Assembly (NCBI GenBank): GCA_035316325.1
Contig: DATHJB010000058.1
Coordinates: 10,578-74,577, forward strand
Reading direction: 5' to 3'
DNA from: Acidimicrobiales bacterium
Lineage (GTDB): Bacteria; Actinomycetota; Acidimicrobiia; Acidimicrobiales; VFJN01
Length of the DNA: 64,000 nucleotides
This document shows positions 23,237 through 51,538 of this stretch, in pieces. How positions within the stretch are numbered: the stretch's first letter is position 1; each line of letters begins with the position of its first letter. The notes under the pieces are model-generated. The model had not been told where the DNA came from. It made no database searches and saw nothing but the letters and a program-made list of their open reading frames with translations. The position numbers and the translations under genes were made by a program.

Positions 23237-25944
23237 CAGGGCCGCTCCACCCGGACGTCGGTGACCACCATCTTGGCGTCGATGAGGGCGTTGACCCGGC
23301 CCCCGCTCTGGTTGACGTGCAGCATCGCCACACCCCGGGGAACGGCATCGCTGGGCCGCACCGGCACCAGCACGTGGGTGCGGGCCGACGAGACCCGGGC
23401 TTCGTCGCCGGGGGCGATGCCGAGCCGCTCGAAGTCGTGGGGGTTGAGGCGCACGACGGCGCCCTCGGACAGCCCCACCAGCGACTCGCTGTGGCGCAGC
23501 AGGGTGCCCCGGTCGTAGAGCTTGCGGGTGGCCACCAGCCGCATCCCGTAGGCGTCGACGGGCGGGGGCTCCACCACGGTCCACTCCGGCAACGGCAGCG
23601 GGGCGGCACCGGCGACCAGGTGGCCGGGATCGCTGGCCGGCGGGGCGACGGCGTCCTCGATGACGGGGGTGGGCTCGTCGGCCTCGGCCTCGACCGCGAC
23701 TTCGGCCTCGGCGGCGGTGTCGTCGGCCGCGGCGGCCGGGTCGGTGGAACCGTTGCCGTTGCCGTCGCCGTTCGACGCTGCGGTCGCCGTGGCGAGCTTG
23801 CGGCTGGGCCACTCGACCACCACGCCGTCGGCGTCGCCGGCCTCGGCCAGCACGTCGCCGATGCCGGCGAAGAGGGGCGCCACCTGGCGCAGCTCGTCCC
23901 ACACCTGCTCGGGCGACTCGATGCCCAGGTCGTAGCCCAGGCGCCGGGAGATGTCGGCGGCGATCACCCAGTCGGTCTGGGCGGTGCCCGGGGCCGTCAC
24001 CTTCTGGGCGACCGTGGTGATGCGGCCCTCCAGGTTGGTGGTGGTGCCCCGCACCTCGGCGAAGCCGGCCGCGGGCAGCACCACGTCGGCCTGCCGCACC
24101 GACTCGGTGAGGAACAGGTCGCTGGCGATCACCGTGCGAGCCCCGGCCAGGCCACGCTCGGCCAGGTCGCGGTCGGGGAAGTCGCTCAGCGGGTCGGCGC
24201 CCAGCAGGATCAGCGTGTCGATCTTGCCGGCGGCTGCGGCGGTCAGGATGCCGGCGGCGTCGAGGCCCCGGTCGGACGGCATCCGGGGCCACAGCCCGGC
24301 GACCGCCTCGGCCCCGGCGGCCAGCGTGGTGCGCCCCGCCAGGAGGCCCGGCGCCATGCCCATGTCGATGGCCCCGTGGACGTTGGCGCGGCGCAGCGCC
24401 GAGAGGAACTTCACCTCGGGGCGGGCGTCGTGGATGGCCTTGGCCGCGGCGGCGATCGACTCGGCGGCCTCGGTGAGGTTGCCCCGCCCGACGATCACGC
24501 TCAACGGGCGCTCGCCCAGCAGGCGGGCGACGTCCTCGATCAGGTCGGCCCGGATGCCGGCGACTTCGGTGGGCAGCTCGGTCTCTTCGCTCGACCCGGC
24601 GGCCAGGAAGGCCTCGACCAGGGCGTGGACCTCGCCGGGGCGGTAACGCAGCGAGTGCGTGGCCAGGTGGCTCGTCGCGGTCTCGACCGACGACAGCTCC
24701 ACCAGGTCGACGCCGCTCTCGAGGATGGCGTGGCGCAGCCGCAGGTACAGGACCGGCAGCTCCTCCTTGGGATCGGGGCCGATCAGCAGCACCACCCCGC
24801 CGGGGGCGCACACCTCGTCGATCGTGGCCCGGGGCAGCCCCACCACCAGCTCGGCGGGCAGGCCGTCGTCGAGCTGGCAGTCGACGTTGTCGGTGCCGAT
24901 CACGCCCTTCGCCAGCTTCACCCAGGCGTAGGCGTCCTCGTTGGTGAGCCGGGAGCCGCCGAGCACGGCGACGCCCTCGGGGCCGCTGCGGTCGATGCCC
25001 TGCTGCAGTGCGGTGGTGGCCCGCTCCAGTGCCGCCGACCAGCTGGCCGGCTCCAGGAGCAGGCCCTCGTCGCGCAGCAGCGGGCTGCCCAGGCGCTCGT
25101 CGCTGTCGACGGCCTCGAACCCGAAGCGACCCTTGTCGCACAGCCAGCCCCAGTTGACCGGCTCCAGGTCGACGCCCTGGTAGCGCAGCACCTGGTTGCG
25201 GCTCGACTGCACCACCATGCGGCAGCCGACCGAGCAGCCGGTGCAGGTGGTCTCGGCCTCCTCCAGGTCCCACGGGCGGGCCTTGAAGCGGAACGGCGTG
25301 GCGGTCAGCGCCCCCACCGGGCAGATCTGCACGGTGTTGCCGCTGAAGTAGCTGGCGAACGGCTGGTCGGGGAACGTGTTGACCTGCGTCTGGTCGGCCC
25401 GGTCGAGGAAGTGGATCAGCGGGTCGCCGGCCACCTCCTTGGCGAAGCGGGTGCAGCGGTCGCAGAGGATGCAGCGCTCCCGGTCGAGCAGCACCACGTC
25501 GCTCACCGGGATCGGCTTCTCGTAGTGGCGCTTCTCCTCGACGAACCGGCTCTCGCCCGGGCCGTAGGACATCGTCTGGTCCTGCAGCGGGCACTCGCCG
25601 CCCTTGTCGCACACCGGGCAGTCGAGCGGGTGGTTGATCAGGAGGAACTCGAGGACACCCTCCTGCGCCTTCTGGGCCGCGGGCGACTCGGTGAGCACGG
25701 TCATCCCGTCGGTGCACTCGATCATGCACGACGGCTGCAGCGCCGGGCCCCGACCGGTGTCGATCTCGACCAGGCACATGCGGCACATGCCCACCGAGCT
25801 CATGCGCGGGTGGTAGCAGAACCGCGGGATGTAGACCCCGTTCCGCTCCGCGGCGGCGATGACCAGCTCGCCCTTCTCGGCGACGATCTCGTTCCCGTCC
25901 ACGGTCACCGTGACGGTGTCCGTGGGCGCCTCGACGTCGGTCAC
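23236..25944 (-). CDS. nuoG: NADH-quinone oxidoreductase subunit G (75-kDa Fe-S subunit)
   Basis: The GTG at 25944 overlaps the nuoF stop (GTGA). An N-terminal 2Fe-2S motif is present (CYHPRMSSVGMCRMCLVE), followed by HPLDCPVCDKGGECPLQD and CILCDRCTRF, then a molybdopterin-like domain. A low-complexity acidic insert lies near the C-terminus. Confidence 0.9.
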   Translation of the reverse strand: MTDVEAPTDTVTVTVDGNEIVAEKGELVIAAAERNGVYIPRFCYHPRMSSVGMCRMCLVEIDTGRGPALQPSCMIECTDGMTVLTESPAAQKAQEGVLEFLLINHPLDCPVCDKGGECPLQDQTMSYGPGESRFVEEKRHYEKPIPVSDVVLLDRERCILCDRCTRFAKEVAGDPLIHFLDRADQTQVNTFPDQPFASYFSGNTVQICPVGALTATPFRFKARPWDLEEAETTCTGCSVGCRMVVQSSRNQVLRYQGVDLEPVNWGWLCDKGRFGFEAVDSDERLGSPLLRDEGLLLEPASWSAALERATTALQQGIDRSGPEGVAVLGGSRLTNEDAYAWVKLAKGVIGTDNVDCQLDDGLPAELVVGLPRATIDEVCAPGGVVLLIGPDPKEELPVLYLRLRHAILESGVDLVELSSVETATSHLATHSLRYRPGEVHALVEAFLAAGSSEETELPTEVAGIRADLIEDVARLLGERPLSVIVGRGNLTEAAESIAAAAKAIHDARPEVKFLSALRRANVHGAIDMGMAPGLLAGRTTLAAGAEAVAGLWPRMPSDRGLDAAGILTAAAAGKIDTLILLGADPLSDFPDRDLAERGLAGARTVIASDLFLTESVRQADVVLPAAGFAEVRGTTTNLEGRITTVAQKVTAPGTAQTDWVIAADISRRLGYDLGIESPEQVWDELRQVAPLFAGIGDVLAEAGDADGVVVEWPSRKLATATAASNGDGNGNGSTDPAAAADDTAAEAEVAVEAEADEPTPVIEDAVAPPASDPGHLVAGAAPLPLPEWTVVEPPPVDAYGMRLVATRKLYDRGTLLRHSESLVGLSEGAVVRLNPHDFERLGIAPGDEARVSSARTHVLVPVRPSDAVPRGVAMLHVNQSGGRVNALIDAKMVVTDVRVERP

Positions 25945-27332
25945 GCCGGTGCCTCCGCGGGCTCGGGTTGCTCGGGTTGCGTGGGTTGCGAGAGGTAGGC
26001 CTTGCCGCCGATGGCGACCGTGACCTCGGCGTCGCCGCCGCAGTAGGCCGCGAACTCGTCCTTGAAGCGGAGCACCGCCGACGCGATCGGCGACACCACG
26101 GACGGGCCCAGCGGGCAGATCGTGGTCTGCTTCGGGGGCCACGTGATCTGCGGGGAGATGTTGTCGCAGACGTCCATCAGCTTGTCGACGTCGCCGGGGC
26201 GGCCCTGGCCGTCGAGCATCCGGCGCAGCAGCTTCTCCAGCCAGGCGGTGCCCTCGCGGCACGGCGTGCACTTGCCGCACGACTCGCGGGCGAAGAAGCG
26301 GACCAGCCGCCAGGCGGCCTTCACCGCATCGGTGGTCTCGTCCATCACCACGATCGCCCCGGAGCCCAGCATCGACCCGGCCGCACCCACGGCCCCCGCC
26401 TCCAGCGGCAGGTCGAGGTGCTCCTCGAAGAACCACGGCGCCGACGCCCCGCCAGGGATGAACGCCTTCAGCTTGTTGCCGTCGCGGATGCCGTCGCCGT
26501 ACTCCTTGCCGTACAGCAGGTCGCGGAACGTCGTCACCCCGAACTCGACCTCGAAAACGCCCGGGCTGTTGACGTGCCCCGACACCGCGAACAGCCGGGT
26601 GCCGGTCGACTTCTCGGCCCCAAGCTCGGCGAACGCCCCGCCGCCGTTGGCGACGATCCACGGCAGGTTCGACAGCGTCTCGACGTTGTTGACCACCGTC
26701 GGCTGCAGGTACAGGCCCTTGGCGGCCGGGAAGAAGGGCGGCTTCAGGCGGGGCATCCCGCGGTTGCCCTCCAGCGACTCGATGAGCGCCGTCTCCTCGC
26801 CGACGATGTAGGCGCCCGCACCCCAGTGCAGCACCACGTCGATCGAGAACTCGCTGCCCATGATGCTGCGGCCCACGTAGCCGGCGGCGTAGGCGTCGTT
26901 GAGCGCCCCGGCGATGCGCTCCTGGGCCAGGGCCATCTCGCCCCGCACGTACAGGAACGCCTGGCCGCAGCCGATGGCGTAGGCCGCCAGCAGCACGCCC
27001 TCGATCAGCTGGTGGGGGTCGCGCTCCATCAGCAGCCGGTCCTTGTAGGTGCCCGGCTCCGACTCGTCGCCGTTGACCACCAGGTAGCGCGGGAACACGC
27101 CCGGCGGGCAGAAGCCCCACTTCACGCCGGCGGGGAAGCCGGCGCCGCCGCGGCCCAGCAGGCTGGCGGCCTTGACCTCCTCGCCCACCTGGGCGGGGGT
27201 CATGGTGTCGAGCGCCTTCCGCAGCGCCGCGTAGCCGCCGGTCGCCTCGTAGCGCTCCAGCGTGAAGCCGTCGTCGACGTCCCAGCGGGACGTGACGATC
27301 CTCGGGATCTCGCGAGGGGTCGCCTCGGTCAT
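25941..27332 (-). CDS. nuoF: NADH-quinone oxidoreductase subunit F (NADH/FMN-binding)
   Basis: The internal ATG at 27332 overlaps the nuoE stop (ATGA). Motifs include GRGGAGFPAGVKW, NGDESEPGTYKDR and ESCGKCTPCREG. Confidence 0.92.
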   Translation of the reverse strand: MTEATPREIPRIVTSRWDVDDGFTLERYEATGGYAALRKALDTMTPAQVGEEVKAASLLGRGGAGFPAGVKWGFCPPGVFPRYLVVNGDESEPGTYKDRLLMERDPHQLIEGVLLAAYAIGCGQAFLYVRGEMALAQERIAGALNDAYAAGYVGRSIMGSEFSIDVVLHWGAGAYIVGEETALIESLEGNRGMPRLKPPFFPAAKGLYLQPTVVNNVETLSNLPWIVANGGGAFAELGAEKSTGTRLFAVSGHVNSPGVFEVEFGVTTFRDLLYGKEYGDGIRDGNKLKAFIPGGASAPWFFEEHLDLPLEAGAVGAAGSMLGSGAIVVMDETTDAVKAAWRLVRFFARESCGKCTPCREGTAWLEKLLRRMLDGQGRPGDVDKLMDVCDNISPQITWPPKQTTICPLGPSVVSPIASAVLRFKDEFAAYCGGDAEVTVAIGGKAYLSQPTQPEQPEPAEAPA

Positions 27333-27949
27333 GTCGTGGTGCCCGTGTTGTTGCGGGCCAGCCACACCGGCTCGACGTTCACGGTCGGGCGGGCGACCCG
27401 GGCCCGGCGCTCGGGAGCCACCTGCTGGCGCACCCGCGACAGGGTGCCGTGCTTGGGCACCTCGTGGGCCAGGCGGCCGAGCGACAGGTCGTCGAGCAGC
27501 TCCTCGACCTGGTCGTGGCTCACCTTGTGGAAGTAGCGGTAGTTGACCTGCAGGCAGGGCGCCTCGGTGCACGCGGCGATGCACTCGACGTCCTCCAGGG
27601 TGAACTTCCCGTCGGGCGTGGTGCTGCCGGCCTTGACGCCCAGCTTGTCCTCGAGCTGCTCCAGCAGCTCCTCGCCGCCCGTGAGCAGGCAGGAGATGTT
27701 GGTGCACACGTTGACGAGGTACTCGCCCACGGGCTCGCGCTTGAACATCTCGTAGAACGAGCAGGTGCCCAGCACCTCGGCCGGGGTCGCCTCGACGAGC
27801 TCGGCGATGTGGGTCATCGCCTCGTCGCTCACGTAGCCGTCCTGCTCCTGGGCCAGGTGCAGCAGCGGGATCATCGCCGACCGCGCGACCGGGTACCGGT
27901 CGATGATCTCGTGCGCCAGCGTGGTGTTCTCGGGTGAGAAGCGCGCCAT
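27329..27949 (-). CDS. nuoE: NADH-quinone oxidoreductase subunit E (2Fe-2S)
   Basis: 206-aa ORF with a thioredoxin-like ferredoxin fold (VCTNISC...ECIAACTEAPC). Confidence 0.92.
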   Translation of the reverse strand: MARFSPENTTLAHEIIDRYPVARSAMIPLLHLAQEQDGYVSDEAMTHIAELVEATPAEVLGTCSFYEMFKREPVGEYLVNVCTNISCLLTGGEELLEQLEDKLGVKAGSTTPDGKFTLEDVECIAACTEAPCLQVNYRYFHKVSHDQVEELLDDLSLGRLAHEVPKHGTLSRVRQQVAPERRARVARPTVNVEPVWLARNNTGTTT

Positions 27950-27952
27950 GTC

Positions 27953-29293
27953 CTACCTGTCCACCTCGCCCATGATCGGGTCTGCCGAGGAGATGACCGC
28001 CACGGCGTCGGCGATCAGGCCGCCCCGCAGCATGTGGGGAAGAGTCTGCAGGTTCACGAACGACGGGCCGCGGATGTGCATCCGGTAGGGCCGCCCGCCG
28101 CCGTCGCTCACCATGTAGCAGCCCAGCTCGCCGCGGGGGCTCTCGATGGCGCGGTAGGTCTCGCCGGGCGGCACCTTGAAGCCCTCGGTGAAGATCTTGA
28201 AGTGGTGGATCAGCGCCTCCATCGACTCGTCGATGCGGGCGCGGGGCGGCGGCGTGACCTTGCGGTCCTGGATGCGGTAGTCGCCGGGCGGCATCCGGTC
28301 GAGGATCTGGTGCACCAGCTTGATCGACTCGCGGACCTCGTTGAGCCGGATGGCGTAGCGGTCGAAGCAGTCGCCGTAGCTGCCGACCACCACCGCGAAG
28401 TCGAGCTGGTCGTAGAAGAGGTACGGCATGTCGCGCCGCAGGTCCCACTCGACGCCGGTCGACCGCAGGATCGGCCCGGTGGTGCCCAGCGCCTGGGCCT
28501 CCTCCTGGGTGAGCACGCCCACGCCCTGCAGGCGCTCCCGCCAGATGGGCTGGCCGGTCATCAGGAGGTCGTACTCCTCGAGCCGCGGCGGGCTGGCGTC
28601 GATCACCCGCAGCACCTCGTCGCGCCAGCCGTCGGGAAGGTCGGCGGCCACGCCACCGGGGCGGATGAAGTTGTGGTTCATCCGCAGGCCGGTGATCGTC
28701 TCCAGCAGCCGCAGGGTCTCCTCGCGGTCGCGCCAGCCGTAGATCATCATCCCGACCGCGCCGATGTCCATGCCGTTGGTGGCCAGGAACAGCAGGTGCG
28801 ACGAGATGCGGTTCAGCTCGACCAGCAGCATCCGGATCCACTGGGCGCGCTCCGGGACGTCGTCCTGGATGCCGAGCAGCGTCTCGGTGGCCAGCGAGAA
28901 CGCCAGCTCGTTGTGCAGCGGCGAGGCGTAGTCCATGCGGGTGACGTTGGTGCCGCCCTGCAGGTACGTCAGCGTCTCGCCCGTCTTCTCCATGCCGGTG
29001 TGCAGGTAGCCGATGATCGGCTTGCAGCGCAGCACGGTCTCGCCGTCGAGCTCCAGCATGAGGCGCAGCACACCGTGGGTGGACGGGTGCTGCGGCCCCA
29101 TGTTGATGATCATGGTCTGGTCTTCGGCCGGGGCCTCGTCGGCGAGCTTCTGGGCCTCGGTCTCCGACAGGCGCAGCACCGAGCCGAGCTCCCGCAGCAG
29201 CTCGGCGGCGCCGGCACCCTTGCGCGACGTGATCTCCTGGGAGCCTTCGGCGGTGCGGAAGCGCTCCTCGGCGGTGACGGAGTCAGCGGGCAT
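27953..29293 (-). CDS. nuoD: NADH-quinone oxidoreductase subunit D, set 2
   Basis: 446-aa ORF with the motifs MIINMGPQHPSTHGVLRL and a C-terminal DPIMGEVDR. Confidence 0.95.
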   Translation of the reverse strand: MPADSVTAEERFRTAEGSQEITSRKGAGAAELLRELGSVLRLSETEAQKLADEAPAEDQTMIINMGPQHPSTHGVLRLMLELDGETVLRCKPIIGYLHTGMEKTGETLTYLQGGTNVTRMDYASPLHNELAFSLATETLLGIQDDVPERAQWIRMLLVELNRISSHLLFLATNGMDIGAVGMMIYGWRDREETLRLLETITGLRMNHNFIRPGGVAADLPDGWRDEVLRVIDASPPRLEEYDLLMTGQPIWRERLQGVGVLTQEEAQALGTTGPILRSTGVEWDLRRDMPYLFYDQLDFAVVVGSYGDCFDRYAIRLNEVRESIKLVHQILDRMPPGDYRIQDRKVTPPPRARIDESMEALIHHFKIFTEGFKVPPGETYRAIESPRGELGCYMVSDGGGRPYRMHIRGPSFVNLQTLPHMLRGGLIADAVAVISSADPIMGEVDR

Positions 29294-29768: not shown

Positions 29769-30316
29769 GTCGGGGCCGTCTCTTCGAGTTGGACCCCGGC
29801 GCCACGGCCGGTCGACTCGCGGCGGCGGGTCAGCTCACCCGACTGGATCAGCTCGTGGAGCGTGTTGATGGAGTGGATCAGCGTCTCGGGGCCGGGCGGG
29901 CAGCCGGGGGCGTACACGTCGACCGGGACGATCTGGTCGACGCCCTGCACCAGCGCGTAGTTGTTGAACATGCCACCGGTGCTGGCGCACACGCCCATCG
30001 AGATGACCCACTTGGGCTCCATCATCTGGTCGTGGATCTGGCGCAGCACCGGCGCCATCTTCTGCGAGACGCGGCCGGCGACGATCATGATGTCGGCCTG
30101 CCGGGGCGACGCCCGGAACACCTCCATGCCGAACCGGGCCAGGTCGTAGTGGGCGCCACCGGCACCCATCATCTCCAGCGCGCAGCAGGCCAGGCCGAAG
30201 GTAGCGGGCCACGACGAACGGGCCCGCGACCACTTCACCAGGTCTTCCAGCTTGCCGGTGATGAAGTTGTGGTCGAGGCCTTCGAGGCCCTTGTCCATGT
30301 CCCAGGAGAATCCCAT
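29765..30316 (-). CDS. nuoB: NADH-quinone oxidoreductase subunit B, set 2
   Basis: Begins at the internal ATG at 30316 (overlapping the nuoA stop): [13 protein letters not shown]... Motifs are [20 protein letters not shown] and PGCPPGPE. Confidence 0.9.
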
Positions 30317-30822
30317 CAGGCGGCCTCCTTCCCGGGGGCGTGGGGAGCGTCGTCGCCGAAGGACCGGCCCTCGAGCCCGACCCGACGGACCGTGCTCGAC
30401 GCCGTGCGGTCGGCCGAGACCATCCCCTCGGGCGGCCCACCCCGCGTGAGCCGCTGCGCCTGGTTGACGGGGCCCCACTCGAGGGCGCCCTTGCTCACCA
30501 GGTACAGCAGGCTGACCACCACGGCAGCGGCGAACATCAGCACCTCGACCAGCCCGAAGGCGCCGAGGTTCCGGTAGTTCACGGCCCAGGGGTACAGGAA
30601 GATGATCTCGATGTCGAACACGATGAAGATCATCGCCACCAGGTAGAAGCGCACCGGGAAGCGCTCCGGCGTCTCCCGTCCGGGCACGATGCCGCACTCG
30701 TAGGGCGCCCGCTTCTCCGCGGTGCTGCGGCGCGGCGCCAGCAGCTTCGACGCGATCAGGCTCAACGCCGCGAACAGCACGGCGAGCACGATCAACGCGA
30801 GGACGGGGAGGTACTGGCCCAT
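30316..30822 (-). CDS. nuoA: NADH-quinone oxidoreductase subunit A, set 2, with a C-terminal extension of about 45 aa
   Basis: 168-aa ORF with NuoA motifs ([18 protein letters not shown]). Its start lies only 3 nt after the stop of the preceding membrane-protein gene. Confidence 0.9.
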
Positions 30823-30825: not shown

Positions 30826-31758
30826 TCACACTTTGGCAGGCAAGGGCACCGGCGCGGCGAGATGTTGGCTGAGCCGCCGGTCACGGACGTGCAGCATGTA
30901 GCAGAGCAGCCCGAAGATCGTGCCGGAGAAGAAGGTGAACAGCGCCACGGGGAGGCGCCGGTTGCCGATGTCGCGCTCCATGATCACCGAGATCGTCTCG
31001 GCGCTGGGGTCGCAGGTCGGCGACGGCGGGGGCTGACCGGGCTCGGCCGCCTCGGCCCGCGTCTCGGGCGTGCTGGGGCACACCTGGAGGACCAGGTAGT
31101 GCGGCGGGTGGGTGATCTGCAGCGTCTGGTCGACGCGGTTCGTCACCCGGTCCCACCAGCCGTCGCCGGAGCGCTTGTCCTTGCCGCCGGTGTCGAACGT
31201 GTAGGTCGCGACGTAGTCGTCGGGCGTGTCGATCACGTCGGAGGCGTTGAGGCCGACGTAGGTGCCGTTGGCCAGCTCGGTGTCGACGACCGACTTGGCC
31301 TCGCCGAACTCCTTGTCGGACTCGGCCAGGAGCCGCCACGGGTCGGACACCTCGTCGACGGTGGCCTTGATCTCCTCGAGCTCGGCCGCGGTGGCCACGT
31401 TGAGGGCGTCGGGCGCCGGGAGGCCGGCGTCGAGCGCCGCCGGCACGTCGAGCTCGTGGGCCTTCGGCAGGTTCGACTGGGTGAGGTCGCCGTAGTTGAC
31501 CTCGACGACGTCCCAGACCGGCCCCACGCCGGCCGGCCCGGTGGCCGAGGGCTGGATCCACCAGAACAGTCCCATGATCGTCATCCAGCCGAAGAGGCCG
31601 GTGAGAGCGATGAGGAAACCGAGCCGGTTGCCGAGGTTGGTGCCCAGCAGCAGGTACGCCGAGCCCATCAGCACGGCGACGCCGACGACGACGATGAGGA
31701 CGCCGCGGATCTGCGGGTCCCAGGCGATGCCGGCGATCAACTGGGTGAGAGCGATCAT
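30826..31758 (-). CDS. Orphan membrane protein: three N-terminal TM helices, an extracytoplasmic domain of about 170 aa, and one C-terminal TM helix
   Basis: 310-aa ORF with high GC3. Its ATG overlaps the cytochrome c stop (ATGA at 31755-31758). Its stop is 3 nt before nuoA. I recognised no family. Confidence 0.7.
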
Positions 31759-33089
31759 GGGTTCAGAGCCTCTATCGCCTCGTCGGAGCAGAAGGGGGGC
31801 GTCGGTGCGGCGCTCTCCTCGGCGTCCTCACCGTCGGCGACGGTGGTCGTGGTGGTCGGCGGGGGTGCCACGGTGGTGGGCACCTCGGGGAGCGGCTCCT
31901 GGTTGCCCTGCAGGGTGGCGGCGTAGCGGGCGACGGCGCACACCATCTCGCGTGTGTACTGGCCGTCATCGGCGACCGCTTCGGTGTTGGGGTCGTCGCC
32001 GAAGCCCGGCATCCGTCCGCTGCCCTGGCCGCCGATGCCGAAGCCGAGGCCGTCGATGGAGCCGAGGGAGACGAACTCGGCCAGCTCGTCGACGGAGGCG
32101 AACTTGCGGGGGAGGAGGTCGTCCAGCGGGGGTGCGATGCCACCGCCCGAGCCGTCGTGGTAGTCGGTGTAGGGCCCGAGCAGCGCCCCGGCCGACGCCG
32201 GCTCCACAGCCCCGTCGCCCTCGGTGATCATCGACCAGCCCCGCGTGTGGCAGCGGCCGCACGCGTAGGCCCCGCTGGCGAACCCGGTCTCACGGCCCAG
32301 GTTGAACAGCGCCTCACCGGTGGCCAGCGAGTCGTAGTCGATGTTCTTGGCGGCCTCGGCCACCTTCTCGGGGTCCTCGAGGTCGTCGCCCTGGAGCAGG
32401 CCCAGGTCGGCGACCAGCTCGGCCGCGACGGCCTCCTGCGATTCCTCGGAGCTCAGCTGGACCGACGCCAGGTAGTCGATGACGTTCTCGATCTCCTGGG
32501 TGGTCCGCGGGCCACCGCCCTCCGCGCCCCAACCGACCATCGGCGTGCCCGGCCGGCCGTAGGTGATGATGTTGAACACCTCGTCACGGCTGAACCGCAG
32601 CAGCACCGTGTTGAGCGCCGGCGCCCGCCACTGCAGGTTGGCGACGAACCCGCCGTTGGCGTCGAACAGCGTGTAGGGCGCCTGGCCGCCGGTGCCCTCG
32701 GGGCCGTGGCAGTTGGCGCACTGCGACCCCTCCTCGTACTGCTCGAGGCCCCGGTCCGTGAACTTGCGCAGCATGTCGGCCTCGGCGCCCTCCTGGCGAC
32801 CGGGCTCGGCCAGCCAGTAGAGCGGCAGGCCCACGGCGACGATGCCCAGCAGGACCACGCCCGACGCGAGCGTGCGGTTGAGCTTGGTGGTCTCCAGCTG
32901 CTCGTCGTCGTAGTAGGGCTTGCGGTTGGGCGCCAGCTCGATCTCGGAGCCGACCTCGTCGCGCCCCGCCCGCAGGTTGGCGATCACGTAGGCGACGAAG
33001 CCGATCGTCGTCAGCACCGCGATGACGGCGCCGACTGCCTGCACCGTGCTGGCGGCGAGCACGGTGGTGGTCTCGATAGCGATCGACAT
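31755..33089 (-). CDS. Membrane-anchored di-haem cytochrome c (QcrC-like subunit)
   Basis: 444-aa ORF with two CxxCH motifs (CANCH, CGRCH) and two N-terminal TM helices. The C-terminus is Thr/Pro-rich. Its ATG overlaps the Rieske stop. Confidence 0.85.
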   Translation of the reverse strand: MSIAIETTTVLAASTVQAVGAVIAVLTTIGFVAYVIANLRAGRDEVGSEIELAPNRKPYYDDEQLETTKLNRTLASGVVLLGIVAVGLPLYWLAEPGRQEGAEADMLRKFTDRGLEQYEEGSQCANCHGPEGTGGQAPYTLFDANGGFVANLQWRAPALNTVLLRFSRDEVFNIITYGRPGTPMVGWGAEGGGPRTTQEIENVIDYLASVQLSSEESQEAVAAELVADLGLLQGDDLEDPEKVAEAAKNIDYDSLATGEALFNLGRETGFASGAYACGRCHTRGWSMITEGDGAVEPASAGALLGPYTDYHDGSGGGIAPPLDDLLPRKFASVDELAEFVSLGSIDGLGFGIGGQGSGRMPGFGDDPNTEAVADDGQYTREMVCAVARYAATLQGNQEPLPEVPTTVAPPPTTTTTVADGEDAEESAAPTPPFCSDEAIEALNP

Positions 33090-33965: not shown

Positions 33966-34769
33966 TCACAGCTCGAAGAAGATGCCGTCGTTCCAGGGGA
34001 AGACGAAGTTGAAGCCCGGACCCCGGAAGAACGAGCCGATCATCACCAGCACCGCCCAGAACATCAGGAAGAGGGTGAACAGCGAGATCGCGAACTTGCG
34101 GTCTTCCGGCTTGTGGGACGGGTTGCGGTCGGTATAGGGCGCGAAGATCAGCGCCACCAGGCCCAGGCCCGGGATGGTCACACCGGCGACCATCGGGTGG
34201 AACATGGTCAGCAGCTCCTGCAGGCCCAGGAAGTACCAGGGCGCCTTCGACGGGTTCGGCGTCTGGTTGAAGTTGGCCAACTGCAACAGCGGGGCGTTCA
34301 CGAAGATCGAGAACACCAGCAGGAACGCCGTGCAGGACAGGGCGGCCACGAACTCGACGGCCAGCAGGTGGGGCCACACGTGGACCTTGTCCTGCGGGGT
34401 GGCCTTGATGTCCTGGATCGAGCCCGACTTGACGACCGTCAGCAGGCGCTGGGTGTGGCCGCCGGGGCCGGCGGCGAGCGGTGGTGCCGCGGTGCCGGCT
34501 GCTGCGGGGGCTGCGGTCGCCACGGCGGTGGCGGTGCCGGTGGCCTGACCGCCGGCGCTCGCGCCGGGTCCGCCTTCGGCCCGGGCCCGGGCGGCCTTCG
34601 ACCGCTCGAGCAGCGACGCGGGGATGCGGCTCTCGGCCTCGCTGGGCGCGGCGTCACCACCGCCTCCCGCGGGGGGCGCGGCGCCACCGCTGTCGGGGGC
34701 CTTGTTGGCCTCGGCCTTGCGGCGAGCCTCTTCGGCCCGCTTGCGGAGGTGTTCGGGAATCTCTGCCAT
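33966..34769 (-). CDS. Cytochrome b C-terminal half (b6f subunit IV-like) with an N-terminal extension of about 110 aa
   Basis: 267-aa ORF. The Qo-loop motif reads KAPWYFLGLQELL, in the position of PEWYF, and is followed by 3 TM helices. The N-terminus is MAEIPEHLRKRAEEARRKAEA followed by an Ala/Gly-rich linker. Confidence 0.85.
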   Translation of the reverse strand: MAEIPEHLRKRAEEARRKAEANKAPDSGGAAPPAGGGGDAAPSEAESRIPASLLERSKAARARAEGGPGASAGGQATGTATAVATAAPAAAGTAAPPLAAGPGGHTQRLLTVVKSGSIQDIKATPQDKVHVWPHLLAVEFVAALSCTAFLLVFSIFVNAPLLQLANFNQTPNPSKAPWYFLGLQELLTMFHPMVAGVTIPGLGLVALIFAPYTDRNPSHKPEDRKFAISLFTLFLMFWAVLVMIGSFFRGPGFNFVFPWNDGIFFEL

Positions 34770-34793
34770 GGGTCTGTCCTCGTCGCTCCCGGA

Positions 34794-35585
34794 TCAGAGC
34801 GGGCCGGAGATGCCGCCGTCCTTGCGGACACGCCAGAAGTGGATGGCCATGAAGATCACGATCACGAAGGGCAGCAGGAGCACGTGGAGCACGTACCAGC
34901 GCAGCAGCGTGTCGGAGCCGATCTCGGCACCGCCCAGCAGGACGAAGCGCACCTGGTCACCGAACACGGGCGAGTAGCCCATCATGTTGGTGCCCACGGT
35001 GACCGCCCACAGGGCGAGCTGATCCCATGGCAGCAGGTAGCCGGTGAAGCTGAGCAGCAGCGTCAGCAGCAGCAGGATGACGCCGATCACCCAGTTGAAC
35101 TCGCGGGGTGGCTTGTAGGCGCCGTGGTAGAAGACGCGGGCCATGTGCAGGAACACCGACAGCACCATGAGGTGCGCGGCCCAGCGGTGCATGTTCCTGA
35201 CCAGCAGGCCGAAGGTGACCGACGTCTGCAGCGTGTAGATGTCGTCCCACGCCTGCGCCGCCGTCGGCCGGTAGAAGAACATCAGGAAGATGCCGGTGAT
35301 CGTGAGGACGATGAACAGGAAGAAGCTGAGCCCGCCCAGGCAGAGCGTGTAGCTCACCTTCACGGCGTGCCGCTTCACCTTCACCGGGTGCAGGTGGTAG
35401 AGCACGCTGTTCATGATCACGTAGGAACGGTTCCGAGGGCTGTCCGTGTAGCCCTTGCGGAAGATCGAACCCGGCCGGAAGATCGAGTTCCAGACCTGTG
35501 AGCCCTGGATGTTGCCGGGAAGGTCGCGCATCGCCTTCTCGGCCCGCTCCCGGAGGGGCGGCTTCGATTCCATCGTCTTGGCCAT
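34794..35585 (-). CDS. Cytochrome b6-like protein (N-terminal four-helix half of cytochrome b)
   Basis: 263-aa ORF. The helix B histidines lie in RNMHRWAAHLMVLSVFLH. The helix D histidines lie in VLHVLLLPFVIVIFMAIH, with 14 residues between them. The CLGG cysteine is present in helix A (SYTLCLGGLSFF). Confidence 0.9.
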   Translation of the reverse strand: MAKTMESKPPLRERAEKAMRDLPGNIQGSQVWNSIFRPGSIFRKGYTDSPRNRSYVIMNSVLYHLHPVKVKRHAVKVSYTLCLGGLSFFLFIVLTITGIFLMFFYRPTAAQAWDDIYTLQTSVTFGLLVRNMHRWAAHLMVLSVFLHMARVFYHGAYKPPREFNWVIGVILLLLTLLLSFTGYLLPWDQLALWAVTVGTNMMGYSPVFGDQVRFVLLGGAEIGSDTLLRWYVLHVLLLPFVIVIFMAIHFWRVRKDGGISGPL

Positions 35586-36505: not shown

Positions 36506-36673
36506 TGCTGTTCGCTGATCCGGTCTGCCAGCGAAGGTTTTGGCTGGTTTAGCACGGCCGCTCGCGGGGGTTCACATTCGGCTCATACCTTCCTCGCGAC
36601 ACCGTGTGGTCTTGGTACCGCCCTGGCGCCCATGCGTAGAGTGACCGGCCGAGGTACGTCCGCGGAGGCTTCG

Positions 36674-37450
36674 TTGACAGAAATCCCCGAGCATCTCCTG
36701 CAGCGTTCGCGTGAGCGGCGCGCCGCCCTGGGACTGGGTGGTGACGCGCCCGCTTCCGGGTCAGGTGGTGAAGCCGCATCCACTCCGGCTCCCGCCGAGT
36801 CGGCCGCTGTCCCGGCGACGACCGGTGGCGCTGGTGGTGCACCACCGACGACGCCCGCCGTCCCGGCGGAGCCGACGCCCGAGCCGCCGAAGCCGGTCCC
36901 CGCCTACGTGCAGGCCGCCCAGCGCCGTCGCCGCATCCCGCTGTGGGCGATGCCGGTGCTGGCCGCGCTGCCGATCTGGAGCTACGTCTACGTCCGCACG
37001 CTGGAGCCGGCGCCCGTCGAGAACGACCCGATCGAGCTCGGCGCCGCGCTGTTCGCCCCCTGCGGTGCCTGCCACGGCGGCACCGGCGGCGGGGCGGGTG
37101 CGCCCCAGATCTCCGACGGGCGCGTCGAGGCGACCTGGCCCGACTTCCGGGACCAGCTCATGTGGGTGAAGCTCGGCGCCAAGGAGTGGCCCGGCGACAC
37201 CTACGGCGCCGAGAACATCAGCAAGGAAGCCAACAGCGGCATCATGCCCGGCTACGGCGGCAGCCTCACCGACCAGGAGATCGCCCAGGTGGTGCTCTAC
37301 GAGCGCCGGGAGCTCTCCGACGACGAGGCGCCCGAGGGCGAGGACGACGTCCTCCTGGCCATCGCCAACGGCGAGATGACCTTCGCCGATGCCGGCGTGG
37401 GCGAGCTCTCCGCGGCGGCCGGGCTCACCGAGGCCGACCTCGAGGGCTGA
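36674..37450 (+). CDS. Membrane-anchored mono-haem cytochrome c
   Basis: One CxxCH motif (CGACH), with a Met ligand region (IMPGYG) and one TM helix (IPLWAMPVLAALPIWSYVYV). I favour the TTG at 36674, which has GGAGG 5 nt upstream, giving M-TEIPEHLLQRS. The ORF track starts at 36632, but those 14 codons have poor GC3. Confidence 0.8.
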   Translation: MTEIPEHLLQRSRERRAALGLGGDAPASGSGGEAASTPAPAESAAVPATTGGAGGAPPTTPAVPAEPTPEPPKPVPAYVQAAQRRRRIPLWAMPVLAALPIWSYVYVRTLEPAPVENDPIELGAALFAPCGACHGGTGGGAGAPQISDGRVEATWPDFRDQLMWVKLGAKEWPGDTYGAENISKEANSGIMPGYGGSLTDQEIAQVVLYERRELSDDEAPEGEDDVLLAIANGEMTFADAGVGELSAAAGLTEADLEG

Positions 37451-37543: not shown

Positions 37544-38800
37544 GTGACCGACCACCGCTACGACGTGCTGGTGGTGGGGGGCGGGCCGGCCGGCGCCGCG
37601 GCCGCCTACTGGCTGGCGACGGCCGGCCACGACGTCTGCGTGATCGAGCGCAAGACCTTCCCCCGCGACAAGACCTGCGGCGACGGCCTCACCCCGCGGG
37701 CGGTGCGCCAGCTGGCCGACATGGGCCTGGAGCCGGCCATCGCTGCGGCCCACCACCGCCACGACGGGCTGCGGGCGCTGGCCCACGGCATCACGCTCGA
37801 GCTGCCCTGGCCCGACCACCCGGAGTTCCCGTCGTACGGCTACGTCGTGCGGCGCCGCGACCTCGACGGGATGGTCGCCGACCACGCCGCCGCGGCCGGG
37901 GCGACGCTGCGCACGGGGACCGAGGCGGTCCGGCCGGTGCTGCGGGACGGGCTGGTCGCCGGCGCCGTCGTGAAGTCGAAGGAGTCCGGGACCACCGAGG
38001 AGATCCACGCCCGCTACGTGGTGGTCGCCGACGGGTCGCTGTCGCGGTTCGGGCGGGAGCTGGGGACGGCCCGCAACAAGAGCTACCCGCAGGGCATCGC
38101 CATCCGGGGCTACTTCGAGAGCACGCTGTCGAAGGACCCGTGGATCGAGTCGGCGCTCGACGTGCACGACCGCGACGGGCGCAGCCTCCCCGGCTACGGC
38201 TGGATCTTCCCGCTGGGCGACGGCACCATCAACGTCGGGATCGGCCTGCTGTCGACGTTCAAGGGCTACAAGGACGTCAACACGTCGCACCTGATGCGGG
38301 AGTGGGCGGCGACGGCCCCGGAGCACTGGGGCATCGACCCCGAGGCGATGCTGGCGCCCGCGACGGGCGGCCGGCTGCCGATGGCGGGGTCGATGAACCC
38401 GAAGGTGGGGCCGAACTGGGTGGTGATCGGCGACGCCGCCGGGTCGATCAACCCGTTCAACGGCGAGGGCATCGACTACGCCTACGAGACCGCCCGGATG
38501 GCGGCGGGGCTGCTGGACGAGTCGCTGACGACGGGCACGGCCATGCCGCTGCAGCGCTACCCGTCGCTGCTCGACGACGAGTACGGCCTGTACTTCAAGG
38601 TGGCCCGGGCGTTCGCCAAGGTCATCGGCCAGCCGACGCTGATGAAGGAGCTCACCCGGGTGGGCATGCGGTCGCAGACGCTCATGGAGTGGGTGCTGCG
38701 CATCATGGCGAACCTGCTGCGGGAGGACGAGCTGGGGCCGGCCGAGGCGGCGTACCGCTCGGTGGCCCGCATCGCCCGCCTCGTCCCCGAACCGGCCTAG
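37544..38800 (+). CDS. Geranylgeranyl reductase family flavoprotein (MenJ-like menaquinone reductase candidate)
   Basis: 418-aa ORF. An FAD fingerprint is present (YDVLVVGGGPAGAAAAYWLA, KTCGDGLTPRA, GDAAGSINPFNGEGI). Confidence 0.85.
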   Translation: MTDHRYDVLVVGGGPAGAAAAYWLATAGHDVCVIERKTFPRDKTCGDGLTPRAVRQLADMGLEPAIAAAHHRHDGLRALAHGITLELPWPDHPEFPSYGYVVRRRDLDGMVADHAAAAGATLRTGTEAVRPVLRDGLVAGAVVKSKESGTTEEIHARYVVVADGSLSRFGRELGTARNKSYPQGIAIRGYFESTLSKDPWIESALDVHDRDGRSLPGYGWIFPLGDGTINVGIGLLSTFKGYKDVNTSHLMREWAATAPEHWGIDPEAMLAPATGGRLPMAGSMNPKVGPNWVVIGDAAGSINPFNGEGIDYAYETARMAAGLLDESLTTGTAMPLQRYPSLLDDEYGLYFKVARAFAKVIGQPTLMKELTRVGMRSQTLMEWVLRIMANLLREDELGPAEAAYRSVARIARLVPEPA

Positions 38801-44283: not shown

Positions 44284-45525
44284 TCAACGGAGCGCGTCCA
44301 TCGCCCCCGTGAGTTCGTCGAGGACGTCGTCGCTGTGGGCGAGGCCGGGGAAGAGGACCTCGTAGGCGCCGGGGGCGAGGGCCACGCCGGCGTCGAGGAG
44401 AGCGTGGAAGAGGCGGGCGTAGGCGGCCTCGTCGGTGCGCTTGGCCGACTCGTAGTCGACCGGCAGCTCGTCGCCGAGGTACAGGCCCACCAGCGACGAC
44501 ACGACCGGCACCTGAGCGACGACGCCCGCCTTGTCGAGCCCGGTCCGCAGCACGCCCGCCAGCGCCTCGGCCTGGCGCCGGAGGGTTGCGTACGCCGTGT
44601 CGTCCAGCAGGTCGAGCGCAGCGAGCCCGGCGGCGGTGGCCAGCGGGTTCCCCGACAGCGTGCCCGCCTGGTACACGGGGCCCAGCGGGGCCACCACGGA
44701 CATGATGTCGGCCCGCCCGCCGTAGGCCCCGACCGGGAGGCCGCCGCCGATGACCTTGCCCAGCGTCGTCAGGTCGGGCGTGACGTCCAGCAGCTCCTGC
44801 GCCCCGCCCCGGGCCACCCGGAACCCGGTGATCACCTCGTCGAACACCAGCAGGGCACCCACCCGATCGCACTCGGCCCGCAGTCCCTCCAGGAACCCGG
44901 GCTGCGGCGCCACCAGGCCCATGTTGGCGGCGATCGGCTCGACGACCACGCACGCGACCTGCTCGTCGAGCGTCGGCACCACGTTGTACGGCGCCACCAC
45001 GGTGTCGGCGACGGCACCCTCGGTCACCCCGGCGGAGCCCGGCAGCCCCAGGGCGGCCAGACCGCTGCCGGCCTCGGCCAGCAGCAGGTCGCCGTGACCG
45101 TGGTAGTTGCCGGCGAACTTCACCACCTTCGGGCGGCCGGTGAACCCCCGCGCCACCCGGATGGCCGACATCGTCGCCTCCGTACCGCTCGACACCAGCC
45201 GCACCCGCTCGCACGACGGCACCCGCGCCCGGATCGCCTCCGCCAGCAGCACCTCGCGCTCGGTCGGGGCGCCGAACGACGTGCCGTCGACCGCGGCCTG
45301 CTGCACCGCCTCGACGATGGCGGGATGGGCGTGGCCGGCGACGATCGCCCCGTAGGACTGCACCAGGTCGACGTAGCGCCGCCCCTCCACGTCCCACACG
45401 TGGGCGCCCGCACCCCGGGCCACGAAGTACGGCGTCCCCCCGACCGCCCGGAACGCCCGCACGGGACTGTTCACCCCACCCGGGATCACGTCACAGGCAC
45501 GGGCGAAGAGCTCGTCGTTGGTCAT
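44284..45525 (-). CDS. hemL: Glutamate-1-semialdehyde 2,1-aminomutase
   Basis: HemL motifs are present (IPGGVNSPVRAF, SGTEATMSAIRVARG). The ORF track starts at the GTG at 45540, inside a palindromic repeat. I prefer the ATG at 45525 (MTNDELF). Confidence 0.92.
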   Translation of the reverse strand: MTNDELFARACDVIPGGVNSPVRAFRAVGGTPYFVARGAGAHVWDVEGRRYVDLVQSYGAIVAGHAHPAIVEAVQQAAVDGTSFGAPTEREVLLAEAIRARVPSCERVRLVSSGTEATMSAIRVARGFTGRPKVVKFAGNYHGHGDLLLAEAGSGLAALGLPGSAGVTEGAVADTVVAPYNVVPTLDEQVACVVVEPIAANMGLVAPQPGFLEGLRAECDRVGALLVFDEVITGFRVARGGAQELLDVTPDLTTLGKVIGGGLPVGAYGGRADIMSVVAPLGPVYQAGTLSGNPLATAAGLAALDLLDDTAYATLRRQAEALAGVLRTGLDKAGVVAQVPVVSSLVGLYLGDELPVDYESAKRTDEAAYARLFHALLDAGVALAPGAYEVLFPGLAHSDDVLDELTGAMDALR

Positions 45526-45570
45526 TCTGTCTTCGCTCACCCGGCTATAGCCCGCTGAGCGAAGACACTT
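45525..45570. repeat. Palindromic intergenic repeat, family 1, copy B (hemB/hemL spacer)
   Basis: The sequence is TTCTGTCTTCGCTCACCCGGCTATAGCCCGCTGAGCGAAGACA. The outer stem TGTCTTCGCTCA / TGAGCGAAGACA is perfect over 12 bp. The first 21 nt are identical to the reverse complement of copy A. Confidence 0.85.
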
Positions 45571-45576
45571 CGACGG

Positions 45577-46557
45577 TCAACGCAGCGACTCGGCGACCGA
45601 GCGGGCGGCGTACGTCAGGATCATGTCGGCGCCGGCCCGCTTGATCGCCAGCAGGTGCTCCCGCATCACGGCCGGGCCGTCGATCCAACCCCGCTCGGCG
45701 GCAGCGTGGACCATGGCGTACTCGCCGGACACGTGGTACGCCGCCAGCGGGGCGTCCAGCTCGGCCCGGGCCCGGGCGATCACGTCGAGGTAGGCGAGCG
45801 CCGGCTTCACCATGAGGATGTCGGCGCCCTCCACGTAGTCGGCCCGCAGCTCCTCCATCGCCTCGCGCACGTTGCGCGGGTCCTGCTGGTAGGCCTTGCG
45901 GTCGCCGCCGCCCACGATGGTGACGTCGACGGCGTCGCGGAACGGCCCGTAGAGGGCCGAGGCGTACTTGGCGGCGTAGGCGAGGATCGGCAGCGGCTCG
46001 AACCCCGCGTCGTCGAGCGCCTCGCGGATGGCCATGACCTGGCCGTCCATCATCCCCGAGGGAGCGACGATGTCGGCCCCCGCCTCGGCCTGGGCGACCG
46101 CGACCTGGGCGTACAGGTCCAGCGTGGCGTCGTTGTCGACCTCGCCCGACTCCGTCAGCACGCCGCAGTGGCCGTGGTCGGTGTACTCGTCGAGGCACAG
46201 GTCGGCGATCAGCACCATGTCGTCGCCGAGGTCGCTGCGCAGGTCGGACAGCGCCAGCTGGACGATGCCCTCCGGGTCCCAGGCGCCGGAGCCCTCGGCG
46301 TCCTTGTGCGCCGGCACCCCGAACAGCACGACCCCGGGGATGCCCAGGGCGGCCAGCTCGTTGACCTCCTTGCGGAGGGACTCGCGGGTGTGCTGCACGA
46401 CCCCCGGCAGCGACGCGATGGGCTGCGGGACGTCGATGCCCTCGCGCACGAACAGCGGGGCGATCAGGTCGTCGGCGGAGAGCGAGGTCTCGGCCACCAG
46501 GCGACGCAGAGAAGGGGTCCGGCGGAGACGGCGCAGACGCCGCTGCGGGAAGCTCAC
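45577..46557 (-). CDS. hemB: Porphobilinogen synthase (delta-aminolevulinate dehydratase)
   Basis: 326-aa ORF with a GTG start. It begins RRLRRLRRTPSLRRLV and carries the active-site region VAPSGMMDGQV, plus ILMVKPALAYLD. Confidence 0.93.
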   Translation of the reverse strand: MSFPQRRLRRLRRTPSLRRLVAETSLSADDLIAPLFVREGIDVPQPIASLPGVVQHTRESLRKEVNELAALGIPGVVLFGVPAHKDAEGSGAWDPEGIVQLALSDLRSDLGDDMVLIADLCLDEYTDHGHCGVLTESGEVDNDATLDLYAQVAVAQAEAGADIVAPSGMMDGQVMAIREALDDAGFEPLPILAYAAKYASALYGPFRDAVDVTIVGGGDRKAYQQDPRNVREAMEELRADYVEGADILMVKPALAYLDVIARARAELDAPLAAYHVSGEYAMVHAAAERGWIDGPAVMREHLLAIKRAGADMILTYAARSVAESLR

Positions 46558-46662
46558 TCCCGGATGCTAACTGCCTCGGCGCAGCCGAGACCTCTCGGGG
46601 CGGCGGCGGGGTGGTTGGTATGGGACTACGCCCCGACGGCCACACGCCGGAAAAGCCCGACC

Positions 46663-46699: not shown

Positions 46700-46711
46700 G
46701 GAGCATGGGGT

Positions 46712-50780: not shown

Positions 50781-51538
<758 letters not shown>

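Follow-up and report, generated by a model that had tools for sequence, protein, structure and literature searches.

The window analysed here is a stretch of 64,000 nucleotides (nt) from an Acidimicrobiales bacterium (VFJN01; assembly GCA_035316325.1, contig DATHJB010000058.1, positions 10,578-74,577 of the forward strand), and this report concerns an operon in it that encodes a cytochrome bc complex of the b6 type. Its cytochrome b is split into a four-helix protein of 263 amino acids (aa) and a subunit IV-like protein of 267 aa, as the initial annotation had described. We read the locus as a menaquinol:cytochrome c oxidoreductase (complex III) with b6 architecture, built on a four-helix b6 and a three-helix subunit IV of the APWY clade, and we put the probability of this reading at about 80%. 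The G+C content across the window is 68-75%, and the window also holds two nuo clusters, a haem biosynthesis cluster with rex, lgt and a MenJ-like reductase.

Homologous loci were surveyed on GTDB contigs with one genome per species, where at least 597 places matched, and the best 80 of them were compared. Nearly all of these 80 loci are labelled Acidimicrobiia or unclassified Actinomycetota, and three carry evidently mis-binned labels (e.g. Bifidobacterium, Acidobacteria). The matches included an uncultured Acidimicrobiales (92% identical), Salinilacustrithrix flava (90%), Aquihabitans (89%), Iamia, Microthrix and Ilumatobacter. In a search of DNA metagenomes, near-identical DNA came from soil and permafrost only. 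The host belongs to the Acidimicrobiia, an actinobacterial class distinct from the Actinomycetes, from which the textbook complex III of actinobacteria, QcrCAB, is known.

The split cytochrome b and its operon

Families were assigned with Pfam and NCBIfam models, helices with a hydropathy scan, and the 263-aa protein was compared with all PDB sequences by phmmer. Pfam recognised Cytochrome_B (E 6e-47), and the top PDB matches were cytochromes b6 (6rqf, 2zt9, 1q90, 7r0w and 1vf5; E 4e-49 to 6e-48), the best of them coming from spinach, Nostoc, Chlamydomonas, Synechocystis and Mastigocladus. Proteobacterial and mitochondrial cytochromes b followed at E values of about 6e-32 to about 1e-31, and mycobacterial and corynebacterial QcrB at about 1e-24 to 1e-26. 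The NCBIfam models ranked in a similar way: ExtP scored highest (309.7 bits), followed by cytochrome b6 (PRK03735, 216.7), and bc1_QcrB_actin (NF050120) reached 124.8 bits against a cut-off of 500. These results bear out the view that the protein is of the b6 type and differs from the unsplit actinobacterial QcrB.

The alignment with b6 was essentially ungapped, with residues 77-263 of the query lying on b6 30-215. C82, H133, H147, H234 and H249 fell on C35, H86, H100, H187 and H202 of b6 with a uniform offset of +47, and 47 residues extend the N-terminus before the b6 core. C82 lay on C35 in five solved b6 chains, so that the cysteine stands in the haem ci column and the histidine columns are in register. 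The helix A motif TLCLGG, which the initial annotation had pointed out, occupies residues 80-85 and is part of the longer YTLCLGG. The haem b ligands are H133/H147, with 13 residues between them, and H234/H249 in VLHVLLLPFVIVIFMAIH, with 14; the reported 14-residue spacing of the helix D pair follows from the offset that the histidines share with b6. The C-terminus reads RKDGGISGPL where b6 has RKQGISGPL and was aligned to the last b6 residue. The protein stops where b6 stops, and cytochrome b is therefore split at the b6 position. The equivalent of b6 Arg207 was also retained in the phmmer alignment. Helices A, C and D were called by the hydropathy scan, helix B (with H133 and H147) being less hydrophobic, and the protein has a mass of 29.9 kDa. 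Conservation in the Acidimicrobiia set was almost complete: YTLCLGG, C82 together with both glycines, and HFWRVRKDGGISGPL were each found in 80 of the 81 b6 homologues, and H-x14-H, like the spacing of both ligand pairs, in all 81. At the level of sequence, this agreement in b6-type features is far above chance. In the protein database, thousands of clusters exceed 80% identity to the b6 subunit.

The 267-aa protein matched Cytochrom_B_C/PetD in Pfam (E 4e-8), and the hydropathy scan gave three clear helices. It was compared with PetD by phmmer and by hhalign of its family profile; the latter placed the profile on Chlamydomonas PetD with a probability of 92% and KAPWYF on LPEWYF. The Qo loop thus does read KAPWYFLG (APWY at residues 176-179) where b6f and bc1 complexes read PEWY. 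Residues 1 to about 100 form a cytoplasmic low-complexity extension with two IPxxLLxRS motifs, followed by the strongly conserved segment GHTQRLLTVVKSGSIQD and then by the core with WPHLL..EF and APWY. SKAPWYF was found in 77 of the 78 subunit IV homologues and WPHL...EF in all of them. In a lower-confidence stretch of the phmmer alignment, WPHLL..EF falls on PetD WPNDLLYMF, and hence Phe40 of PetD, which covers haem ci, is apparently kept.

The genes of the operon and its neighbours are collected in Table 1. Their order is three-helix membrane protein, 2[4Fe-4S] protein, b6, subunit IV, Rieske protein, dihaem cytochrome c, 310-aa membrane protein and nuoA, with gaps of -4 to 24 nt within the operon. 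A scan for terminators and promoters gave counts at chance level, with no terminator signal above chance. As far as the contigs reach, the order is conserved in the surveyed loci: the Fer4 gene was present in 80/80, the small membrane protein in 78, subunit IV in 77, the Rieske gene in 73, dihaem cytochrome c in 71, the 310-aa protein in 70, nuoA in 69 and the monohaem cytochrome c in 70. RNA contigs of S. flava showed that the membrane-protein, Fer4, b6 and Rieske genes are transcribed, these contigs being short and bridging no gene border.

Table 1. Genes of the b6-type operon and flanking genes, in window positions
Feature	Position	Strand	Evidence
nuoA, first gene of the complex I operon	30316..30822	-	Pfam Oxidored_q4
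310-aa membrane protein	30826..31758	-	hydropathy, conserved position
Membrane-anchored dihaem cytochrome c, 444 aa, CANCH and CGRCH	31755..33089	-	Pfam, NCBIfam, motifs
Rieske [2Fe-2S] protein, 289 aa	33089..33958	-	Pfam/NCBIfam, motifs, hydropathy
Subunit IV, 267 aa, three-helix core	33966..34769	-	Pfam, phmmer, hhalign, hydropathy, conservation
Cytochrome b6-type subunit, 263 aa, four helices	34794..35585	-	Pfam, phmmer, NCBIfam, motif conservation
Soluble 2[4Fe-4S] ferredoxin-like protein, 138 aa	35599..36015	-	Fer4 families, 80/80 loci
Small membrane protein, three predicted helices, called as 146 aa	36034..36474	-	AF2, homologues
Monohaem cytochrome c, 272 aa, CGACH, divergent	36632..37450	+	Pfam, motif, 70 loci
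MenJ-like geranylgeranyl/menaquinone reductase	37544..38800	+	NCBIfam

In the Rieske protein, an N-terminal helix is followed by a cytoplasmic loop and then by the twin-arginine motif TRRQFF and a second helix. Its cluster boxes are CPHLGC and CPCHGSQY, the S-Y pair being a high-potential signature; the boxes recur as CxHLGC and CxCHGSxY in the homologues, with S-Y in 72 of 74. The dihaem cytochrome c is of the class I type, scored only 20.9 bits with bc1_QcrC_actin and has two CxxCH motifs in 70 of 72 homologues. It acts in place of cytochrome f/c1 and is the analogue of the actinobacterial QcrC. The 310-aa protein consists of N-terminal helices, an extracytoplasmic part of about 200 residues and a C-terminal helix; its start and the stop of the dihaem cytochrome c gene overlap by 4 nt, and 3 nt separate its stop from nuoA. 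Pfam and NCBIfam gave no family for it, and PDB sequence searches with both uncharacterised membrane proteins, this and the small one, found nothing.

For the small membrane protein, the longest open reading frame (ORF) extends to 36555 (173 aa). However, the homologues and the database gene call are 137-146 aa long, and so the true start is probably 36474. The protein ends in an invariant tail, SRYGRPLV, and had no Pfam or NCBIfam match; its 371 relatives, mostly of 137-146 aa, included none with a functional name and nearly all are called 'hypothetical protein'. The AlphaFold2 (AF2) model of the 146-aa form shows three long helices at a pLDDT of 85, and Foldseek found no analogue of it in the PDB (best E 5.2). 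It is a candidate for an extra subunit or an assembly factor. Both uncharacterised membrane proteins and the co-operonic 2[4Fe-4S] protein are putative subunits of the complex.

The complex I operon, nuoA to nuoN, directly follows the bc genes and reaches down to about 15100. The bc genes are separated from nuoA by a 3-nt gap and lead into it in 69 of the 70 loci long enough to show the junction; complexes III and I may therefore form one super-operon in Acidimicrobiia. The conserved gene order therefore describes a b6-type core with an actinobacterial-style dihaem cytochrome c, co-organised with complex I.

On the other strand, the divergent monohaem cytochrome c begins with a cytoplasmic N-terminal segment that contains EIPEHLLQRS. 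Its residues from about 101 to 121 are moderately hydrophobic and form a candidate anchor, although the hydropathy scan called no helix there. The motif IPEHL(L/R)x(R/K)(S/A) occurs twice in the N-terminus of subunit IV (34760 and 34625, minus strand) and once in that of the monohaem cytochrome c (36683, plus strand), and is absent from the rest of the six-frame translation of the window. In other Acidimicrobiia it was kept in 74 of 78 subunit IV and 51 of 71 cytochrome c homologues, and it may be a shared docking or targeting peptide.

Several further features of the window were observed. A second complex-I-like set lies at 890-7255 (nuoH 6209-7255, NuoL-like antiporter subunit 2486-4630), which is consistent with the two nuo copies per genome in a published KO table (PMC11697166). 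The haem biosynthesis cluster (44284-58511) comprises hemL, hemB, a cobA/hemD fusion, hemC, hemA and a sirohaem-synthase-like gene, followed by the Rex repressor, and is interrupted by a branched-chain amino acid ATP-binding cassette transporter (46712-51721). In the complex I operon, at 23236-27120 and 25941-28841, the nuoG frame runs without a stop for about 400 codons ahead of its first domain; no family matched this upstream stretch, and it overlaps a long ORF in another frame, which probably holds nuoF. The longest ORFs at nuoG and nuoF overstate the gene lengths in this G+C-rich DNA.

Clade placement and proposed reaction

Diverse relatives of the b6 subunit were collected from 1.84 billion cluster representatives, and 67 representatives at the 50% identity level were compared and arranged in a neighbour-joining tree, in which the deep branch order is unreliable. 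Over the core, the nearest of them share 58-67% identity with the b6 subunit and have APWY wherever their C-terminal part is fused; for cyanobacterial b6 the identity is 42-45%. The cysteine is patchy among the 67 representatives; where present, it co-occurs with GG in 9/9 cases and with the split form in 8/9, and the one exception is an apparent Fer4-b6 read-through gene call.

Dibrova et al. reportedly named subfamily G in 2013 already, and their later study describes it as taxonomically broad, with a short cytochrome b linked to CxGG, and often encoded beside NAD(P)-binding FeS oxidoreductase genes, e.g. in Kuenenia (Dibrova 2017, PMC5600118). The APWY clade was defined by Kao and Hunte, who reported CxGG within it, together with Rieske partners of Mid+ to high-potential signature (Kao & Hunte 2014, PMC4122944). 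Groups A1/A2 near the green clade are the same sequences, in which the cysteine always goes with the split, seven-helix form (Baymann 2012, PMC3509893). The co-occurrence of cysteine, GG and split form in our comparison agrees with both Baymann 2012 and Dibrova 2017, and the S-Y pair in CPCHGSQY has the Mid+/high signature of the clade. Judged by its sequence, the pair in the window belongs to the APWY clade, which is the same as subfamily G and groups A1/A2.

A b6-type, APWY, cysteine-bearing complex is thus an already published kind, and it is the standard form in Acidimicrobiia. The initial annotation had called it unusual for an organism that otherwise looks actinobacterial; at the level of the class this fails, because the motifs are fixed across the 80 Acidimicrobiia genomes and every one of them has the same arrangement. 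In fact, a split actinobacterial cytochrome b was reported in 2014, at that time only from Rubrobacteridae and Ilumatobacter coccineum (Acidimicrobidae), in the APWY or PEWY-cytochrome c clades (PMC4122944). The complex is apparently the main complex III of Acidimicrobiia. The authors of the S. flava genome annotated only a b6f-type Rieske subunit for complex III and no other complex III, and in a KO table (PMC11697166) qcrB is 0 in most of the first 45 genome columns, which is only a hint as these columns are not assignable to genomes.

Menaquinol is the likely substrate, as had been proposed. A MenJ-like reductase adjoins the operon and supports a partly saturated menaquinone pool (MkRedMenJ E 1.4e-102, though under its cut-off; GG-red-SF over its cut-off), and a UbiE-family methyltransferase lies at 63132-63935. 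Furthermore, S. flava, which has the same operon, contains MK-9(H8). The proline at position 2 of the Qo motif, however, is no marker of menaquinol oxidisers as the initial annotation had it, since the literature ties PDWY to menaquinol and treats APWY as a separate clade (PMC4122944).

In the forward Q cycle, which is the best-supported reading of this menaquinol:cytochrome c oxidoreductase, menaquinol would be oxidised at a Qo site with APWY instead of the carboxylate-bearing PEWY/PDWY. The high-potential S-Y Rieske protein would take up the first electron and hand it to the membrane-bound dihaem cytochrome c, which would feed a terminal oxidase. The second would pass through haems bL and bH across the membrane to the Qi site, where haem ci would reside at C82 in its CxGG context, with the Arg207 equivalent retained. 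Substrate, direction of turnover and haem ci attachment are inferred. Menaquinone has a potential of about -80 mV. The combination of menaquinone with a high-potential Rieske protein implies b haems of very low potential, as has been argued for the anammox complexes.

The 2[4Fe-4S] protein, the probable haem ci and the direction of turnover

The 138-aa 2[4Fe-4S] protein has two CxxCxxCxxxCP motifs separated by a 38-residue insert, both present in 81/81 sequences, and its stop codon precedes the start of b6 by 13 nt. It could be an ordinary soluble ferredoxin that merely shares the bc transcript and is neither a subunit nor a dedicated partner, an alternative to which we give somewhat less than even odds. 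It is always a separate ORF, and the database gives it generic names only ('ferredoxin' or '4Fe-4S binding protein'). The hydropathy scan found neither a hydrophobic helix nor a signal sequence, for which reason it is probably cytoplasmic and lacks a membrane anchor. Pfam found no Pyr_redox or Fer4_20 domain. The AF2 model (alignment of 30 sequences, 83-93% identical) had a pLDDT of 38.6, too low to be of use. Other members of the clade do without the gene: the neighbourhood of locus L081 consists of cytochrome c, Rieske, b, subunit IV and a multihaem cytochrome c, and that of L088 of b, Rieske and cytochrome c. Fer4-b6 fusions were considered as evidence of contact and rejected; P0003, P0012 and P0077 have out-of-frame junk between the parts and are frameshift artefacts, P0072 comes from one contig in one sample, and no such fusion was present in the 80 reference loci.

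Against a mere passenger speaks that the gene stands at the same position in 80/80 loci, 4-176 nt from b6. Its product is also more conserved across the Acidimicrobiia loci (72-93% identity) than the Rieske protein (50-80%) and the dihaem cytochrome c (36-59%), and this includes parts outside the clusters, the N-terminal segment and the C-terminal tail (...THGYGYGMRLG) being nearly invariant. In a related operon on a metagenome contig (L084, 1431-5550; cytochrome b 56% identical), the same slot is filled by a gene that overlaps the start of the cytochrome b gene and encodes a 666-aa, NAD(P)-oxidoreductase-like FeS-flavoprotein with Fer4_20, Pyr_redox_2 and a C-terminal dicluster domain. The FeS protein of the window aligns only to this cytochrome b-proximal dicluster domain, and does so across the long insert between the two cluster motifs as well (35% identity, pairwise E 3e-13); the likeness is only modestly better than generic ferredoxin similarity. 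L084 has a cytochrome b lacking the cysteine (TWGLGV), a subunit IV with AAWY and a low-potential G-F Rieske protein. The parallel is only suggestive, because the similarity is modest and L084 has neither the cysteine nor a high-potential Rieske protein; and since L084 has the module without the cysteine, cytoplasmic FeS modules in the clade are not tied to the haem ci cysteine.

A more far-reaching proposal, which we regard as speculative and unlikely, is that the 138-aa protein is a cytoplasmic subunit which docks to the complex from the n-side, in electronic contact with haem ci and bH. The complex would then be a minimal anammox-type machine that passes the second electron to a ferredoxin-level acceptor or lets ferredoxin feed the Qi site. 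For anammox complexes, the low-potential branch has been proposed to reduce a cytoplasmic acceptor. Quinol-driven reduction of a ferredoxin-level acceptor is conceivable here, because menaquinone and a high-potential Rieske protein imply low-potential b haems and because the ferredoxin-dependent POR and OGOR are almost universal in Acidimicrobiia. If so, oxidation of menaquinol by the high-potential Rieske protein would push the second electron by way of b haems of very low potential to that acceptor, which once reduced could supply POR and OGOR of the reversed oxidative tricarboxylic acid cycle when electrons enter only at the quinone level (e.g. from sulfide via SQR). With the opposite flow, reduced ferredoxin would feed the Qi site. 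A role of haem ci as ferredoxin:quinone reductase has long been debated. With a conserved FeS protein in the slot of an FeS-flavoprotein, a high-potential Rieske protein and menaquinone, the entry or exit of cytoplasmic electrons at haem ci becomes testable in a non-photosynthetic organism.

As to haem ci itself, the cofactor proposed in the initial annotation remains plausible, and the part of that proposal which placed the cysteine in the haem ci column stands; the binding is still an inference. C82 most likely carries a covalent haem ci as in b6f and the Bacillus bc complex, this being the most economical reading of an invariant cysteine that occupies the haem ci column, while both glycines and the equivalent of Arg207 are kept and that of Phe40 is apparently aligned. 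Several points weigh against it. The literature gives no case of haem ci binding within the APWY clade, whose proteins were described as uncharacterised, with the binding still to be verified by experiment (PMC4122944; PMC3509893). A leucine precedes C82, whereas all experimentally confirmed haem ci binders have a tyrosine there (PMC4122944). The cysteine is patchy in the closest relatives, many of which have glycine at this position, and no homologue of a CCB maturation factor was recognised among the operon proteins with Pfam and NCBIfam. Firmicutes attach haem ci and are not known to use CCB proteins for it, so that their lack would be uninformative.

These points would suit an enzyme in which the cysteine is conserved for another reason and which works with two haems in the bc manner despite its b6 architecture, much as the close relatives function without the cysteine. 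We consider such an enzyme rather unlikely, however, given that C82 and both glycines are invariant in 80 of 81 sequences, that the cysteine always accompanies GG and the split form (with the one apparent read-through exception) and that the equivalents of b6 Arg207 and, tentatively, PetD Phe40 are kept.

Kao and Hunte suggested that APWY complexes run in reverse, with electrons from a high-potential donor reducing menaquinone at the cost of the proton-motive force (PMC4122944), which speaks against the forward Q cycle. With proline at position 2, the carboxylate that accepts the proton is lost; the clade member from Geobacter metallireducens has been suggested to run a reverse Q cycle (PMC4122944); and the Rieske protein of the window has a high-potential signature. 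Yet reversal as the normal mode is improbable here. The operon is joined directly to that of complex I and brings its own dihaem cytochrome c, as would be expected of a forward respiratory chain; the complex is universal in an aerobic class, to judge by the 80 retrieved genomes; and in S. flava sulfide-derived electrons enter at the quinone level via SQR and exit via cytochrome c oxidase, a route that requires electrons to pass from quinol to cytochrome c in the forward direction. The idea of reverse operation thus fits poorly with a conserved, complex I-linked operon.

Finally, the pair might be taken for the product of a recent split in an ordinary actinobacterial QcrB, in view of the actinobacterial host and a dihaem cytochrome c subunit like QcrC. 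This possibility is refuted for practical purposes by the PDB and NCBIfam comparisons (QcrB at E about 1e-24 to 1e-26 against 4e-49 for b6; QcrB_actin at 124.8 bits against its cut-off of 500, with ExtP at 309.7 and b6 at 216.7), as well as by the helix D spacing of 14, the b6 terminus and APWY rather than PDWY.

Comparison with known systems

The confirmed finding alone adds one more member to a clade described in 2012-2017 and changes little; less described is the conserved operon with its extra iron-sulfur protein. Because Acidimicrobiia are abundant, partly cultivable aerobes in which the enzyme is apparently the everyday complex III, they offer a practical test system both for haem ci in the APWY clade and for a Qo site free of a carboxylate. 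KO-based and PGAP annotation mislabels or misses the complex, which is either given 'ExtP' names or scored as an absent complex III in KO tables.

The name ExtP comes from the Geobacter system ExtOPQ, a Rieske protein, a cytochrome b (ExtP) and a membrane protein encoded in the extHIJKLMNOPQS cluster. The b6 subunit scores above the ExtP cut-off (309.7 against 290, NF040969), for which reason close homologues in Acidimicrobiales MAGs are named by NCBI annotation 'selenite/tellurite reduction operon b-type cytochrome ExtP', and subunit IV weakly matches ExtQ. However, the window has no porin, rhodanese or multihaem ext genes, and the neighbours are instead nuo, cytochrome c, menJ, lgt and hem genes. 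The selenite/tellurite name is over-propagated, no ext cluster genes being present.

With QcrCAB of Mycobacterium and Corynebacterium the complex shares the phylum, a dihaem cytochrome c, menaquinol as the probable substrate and a multi-helix Rieske protein with an internal twin-arginine motif. QcrB differs in being unsplit, with about 540 aa and PDWY, and the window proteins miss its family models widely. QcrB also has a 13-residue spacing and is not known to have the cysteine or haem ci.

The core resembles that of b6f (PetB/PetD/PetC; 1q90, 1vf5, 6rqf) in being 42-45% identical, in the split point, the histidine ligands and the equivalents of Cys35, Arg207 and, tentatively, Phe40, and the Rieske box CPCHGSQY is common to both. 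In contrast to b6f, the window complex has APWY for PEWY and leucine for tyrosine before the cysteine, probably uses menaquinone instead of plastoquinone, carries longer N-terminal extensions on b6 and subunit IV and stands in a non-photosynthetic context. Cytochrome f and small Pet subunits are missing; no cytochrome f and no Pet-like small ORFs were identified at the locus, and it is thus not a b6f complex sensu stricto.

The Bacillus and Heliobacterium menaquinol:cytochrome c reductases (QcrABC/PetBD), which are of the b6c type and for which haem ci is proven, likewise combine a b6-type split cytochrome b with a Gram-positive menaquinone user. They have PDWY/PEWY, YCxGG and a low-potential Rieske protein. 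In Firmicutes subunit IV is fused to cytochrome c, whereas in the window subunit IV is free and the dihaem cytochrome c is a separate gene. The anammox complexes of Kuenenia, which include an NAD(P) oxidoreductase subunit, have a subfamily G cytochrome b, a cytoplasmic FeS module encoded with the b6-type genes, and a high-potential Rieske protein together with menaquinone. The window has only the 2[4Fe-4S] module, and neither an FAD/NAD(P) domain nor multihaem or HAO-like partners.

The closest likeness is to the APWY clade itself, with which the complex shares the split cytochrome b, the seven helices, the CxGG cysteine, the 14-residue spacing in helix D, APWY and a Mid+/high Rieske protein. 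A first difference is (T)LCLGG in place of the clade-typical WCMGG. Secondly, the operon adds the dihaem cytochrome c, the 2[4Fe-4S] protein and two membrane proteins and runs into nuoA; in the accessible literature on the clade we did not find these four components or the linkage to nuoA described. Lastly, in Acidimicrobiia the complex is vertically conserved and apparently serves as the main complex III, rather than being an extra, laterally acquired copy.

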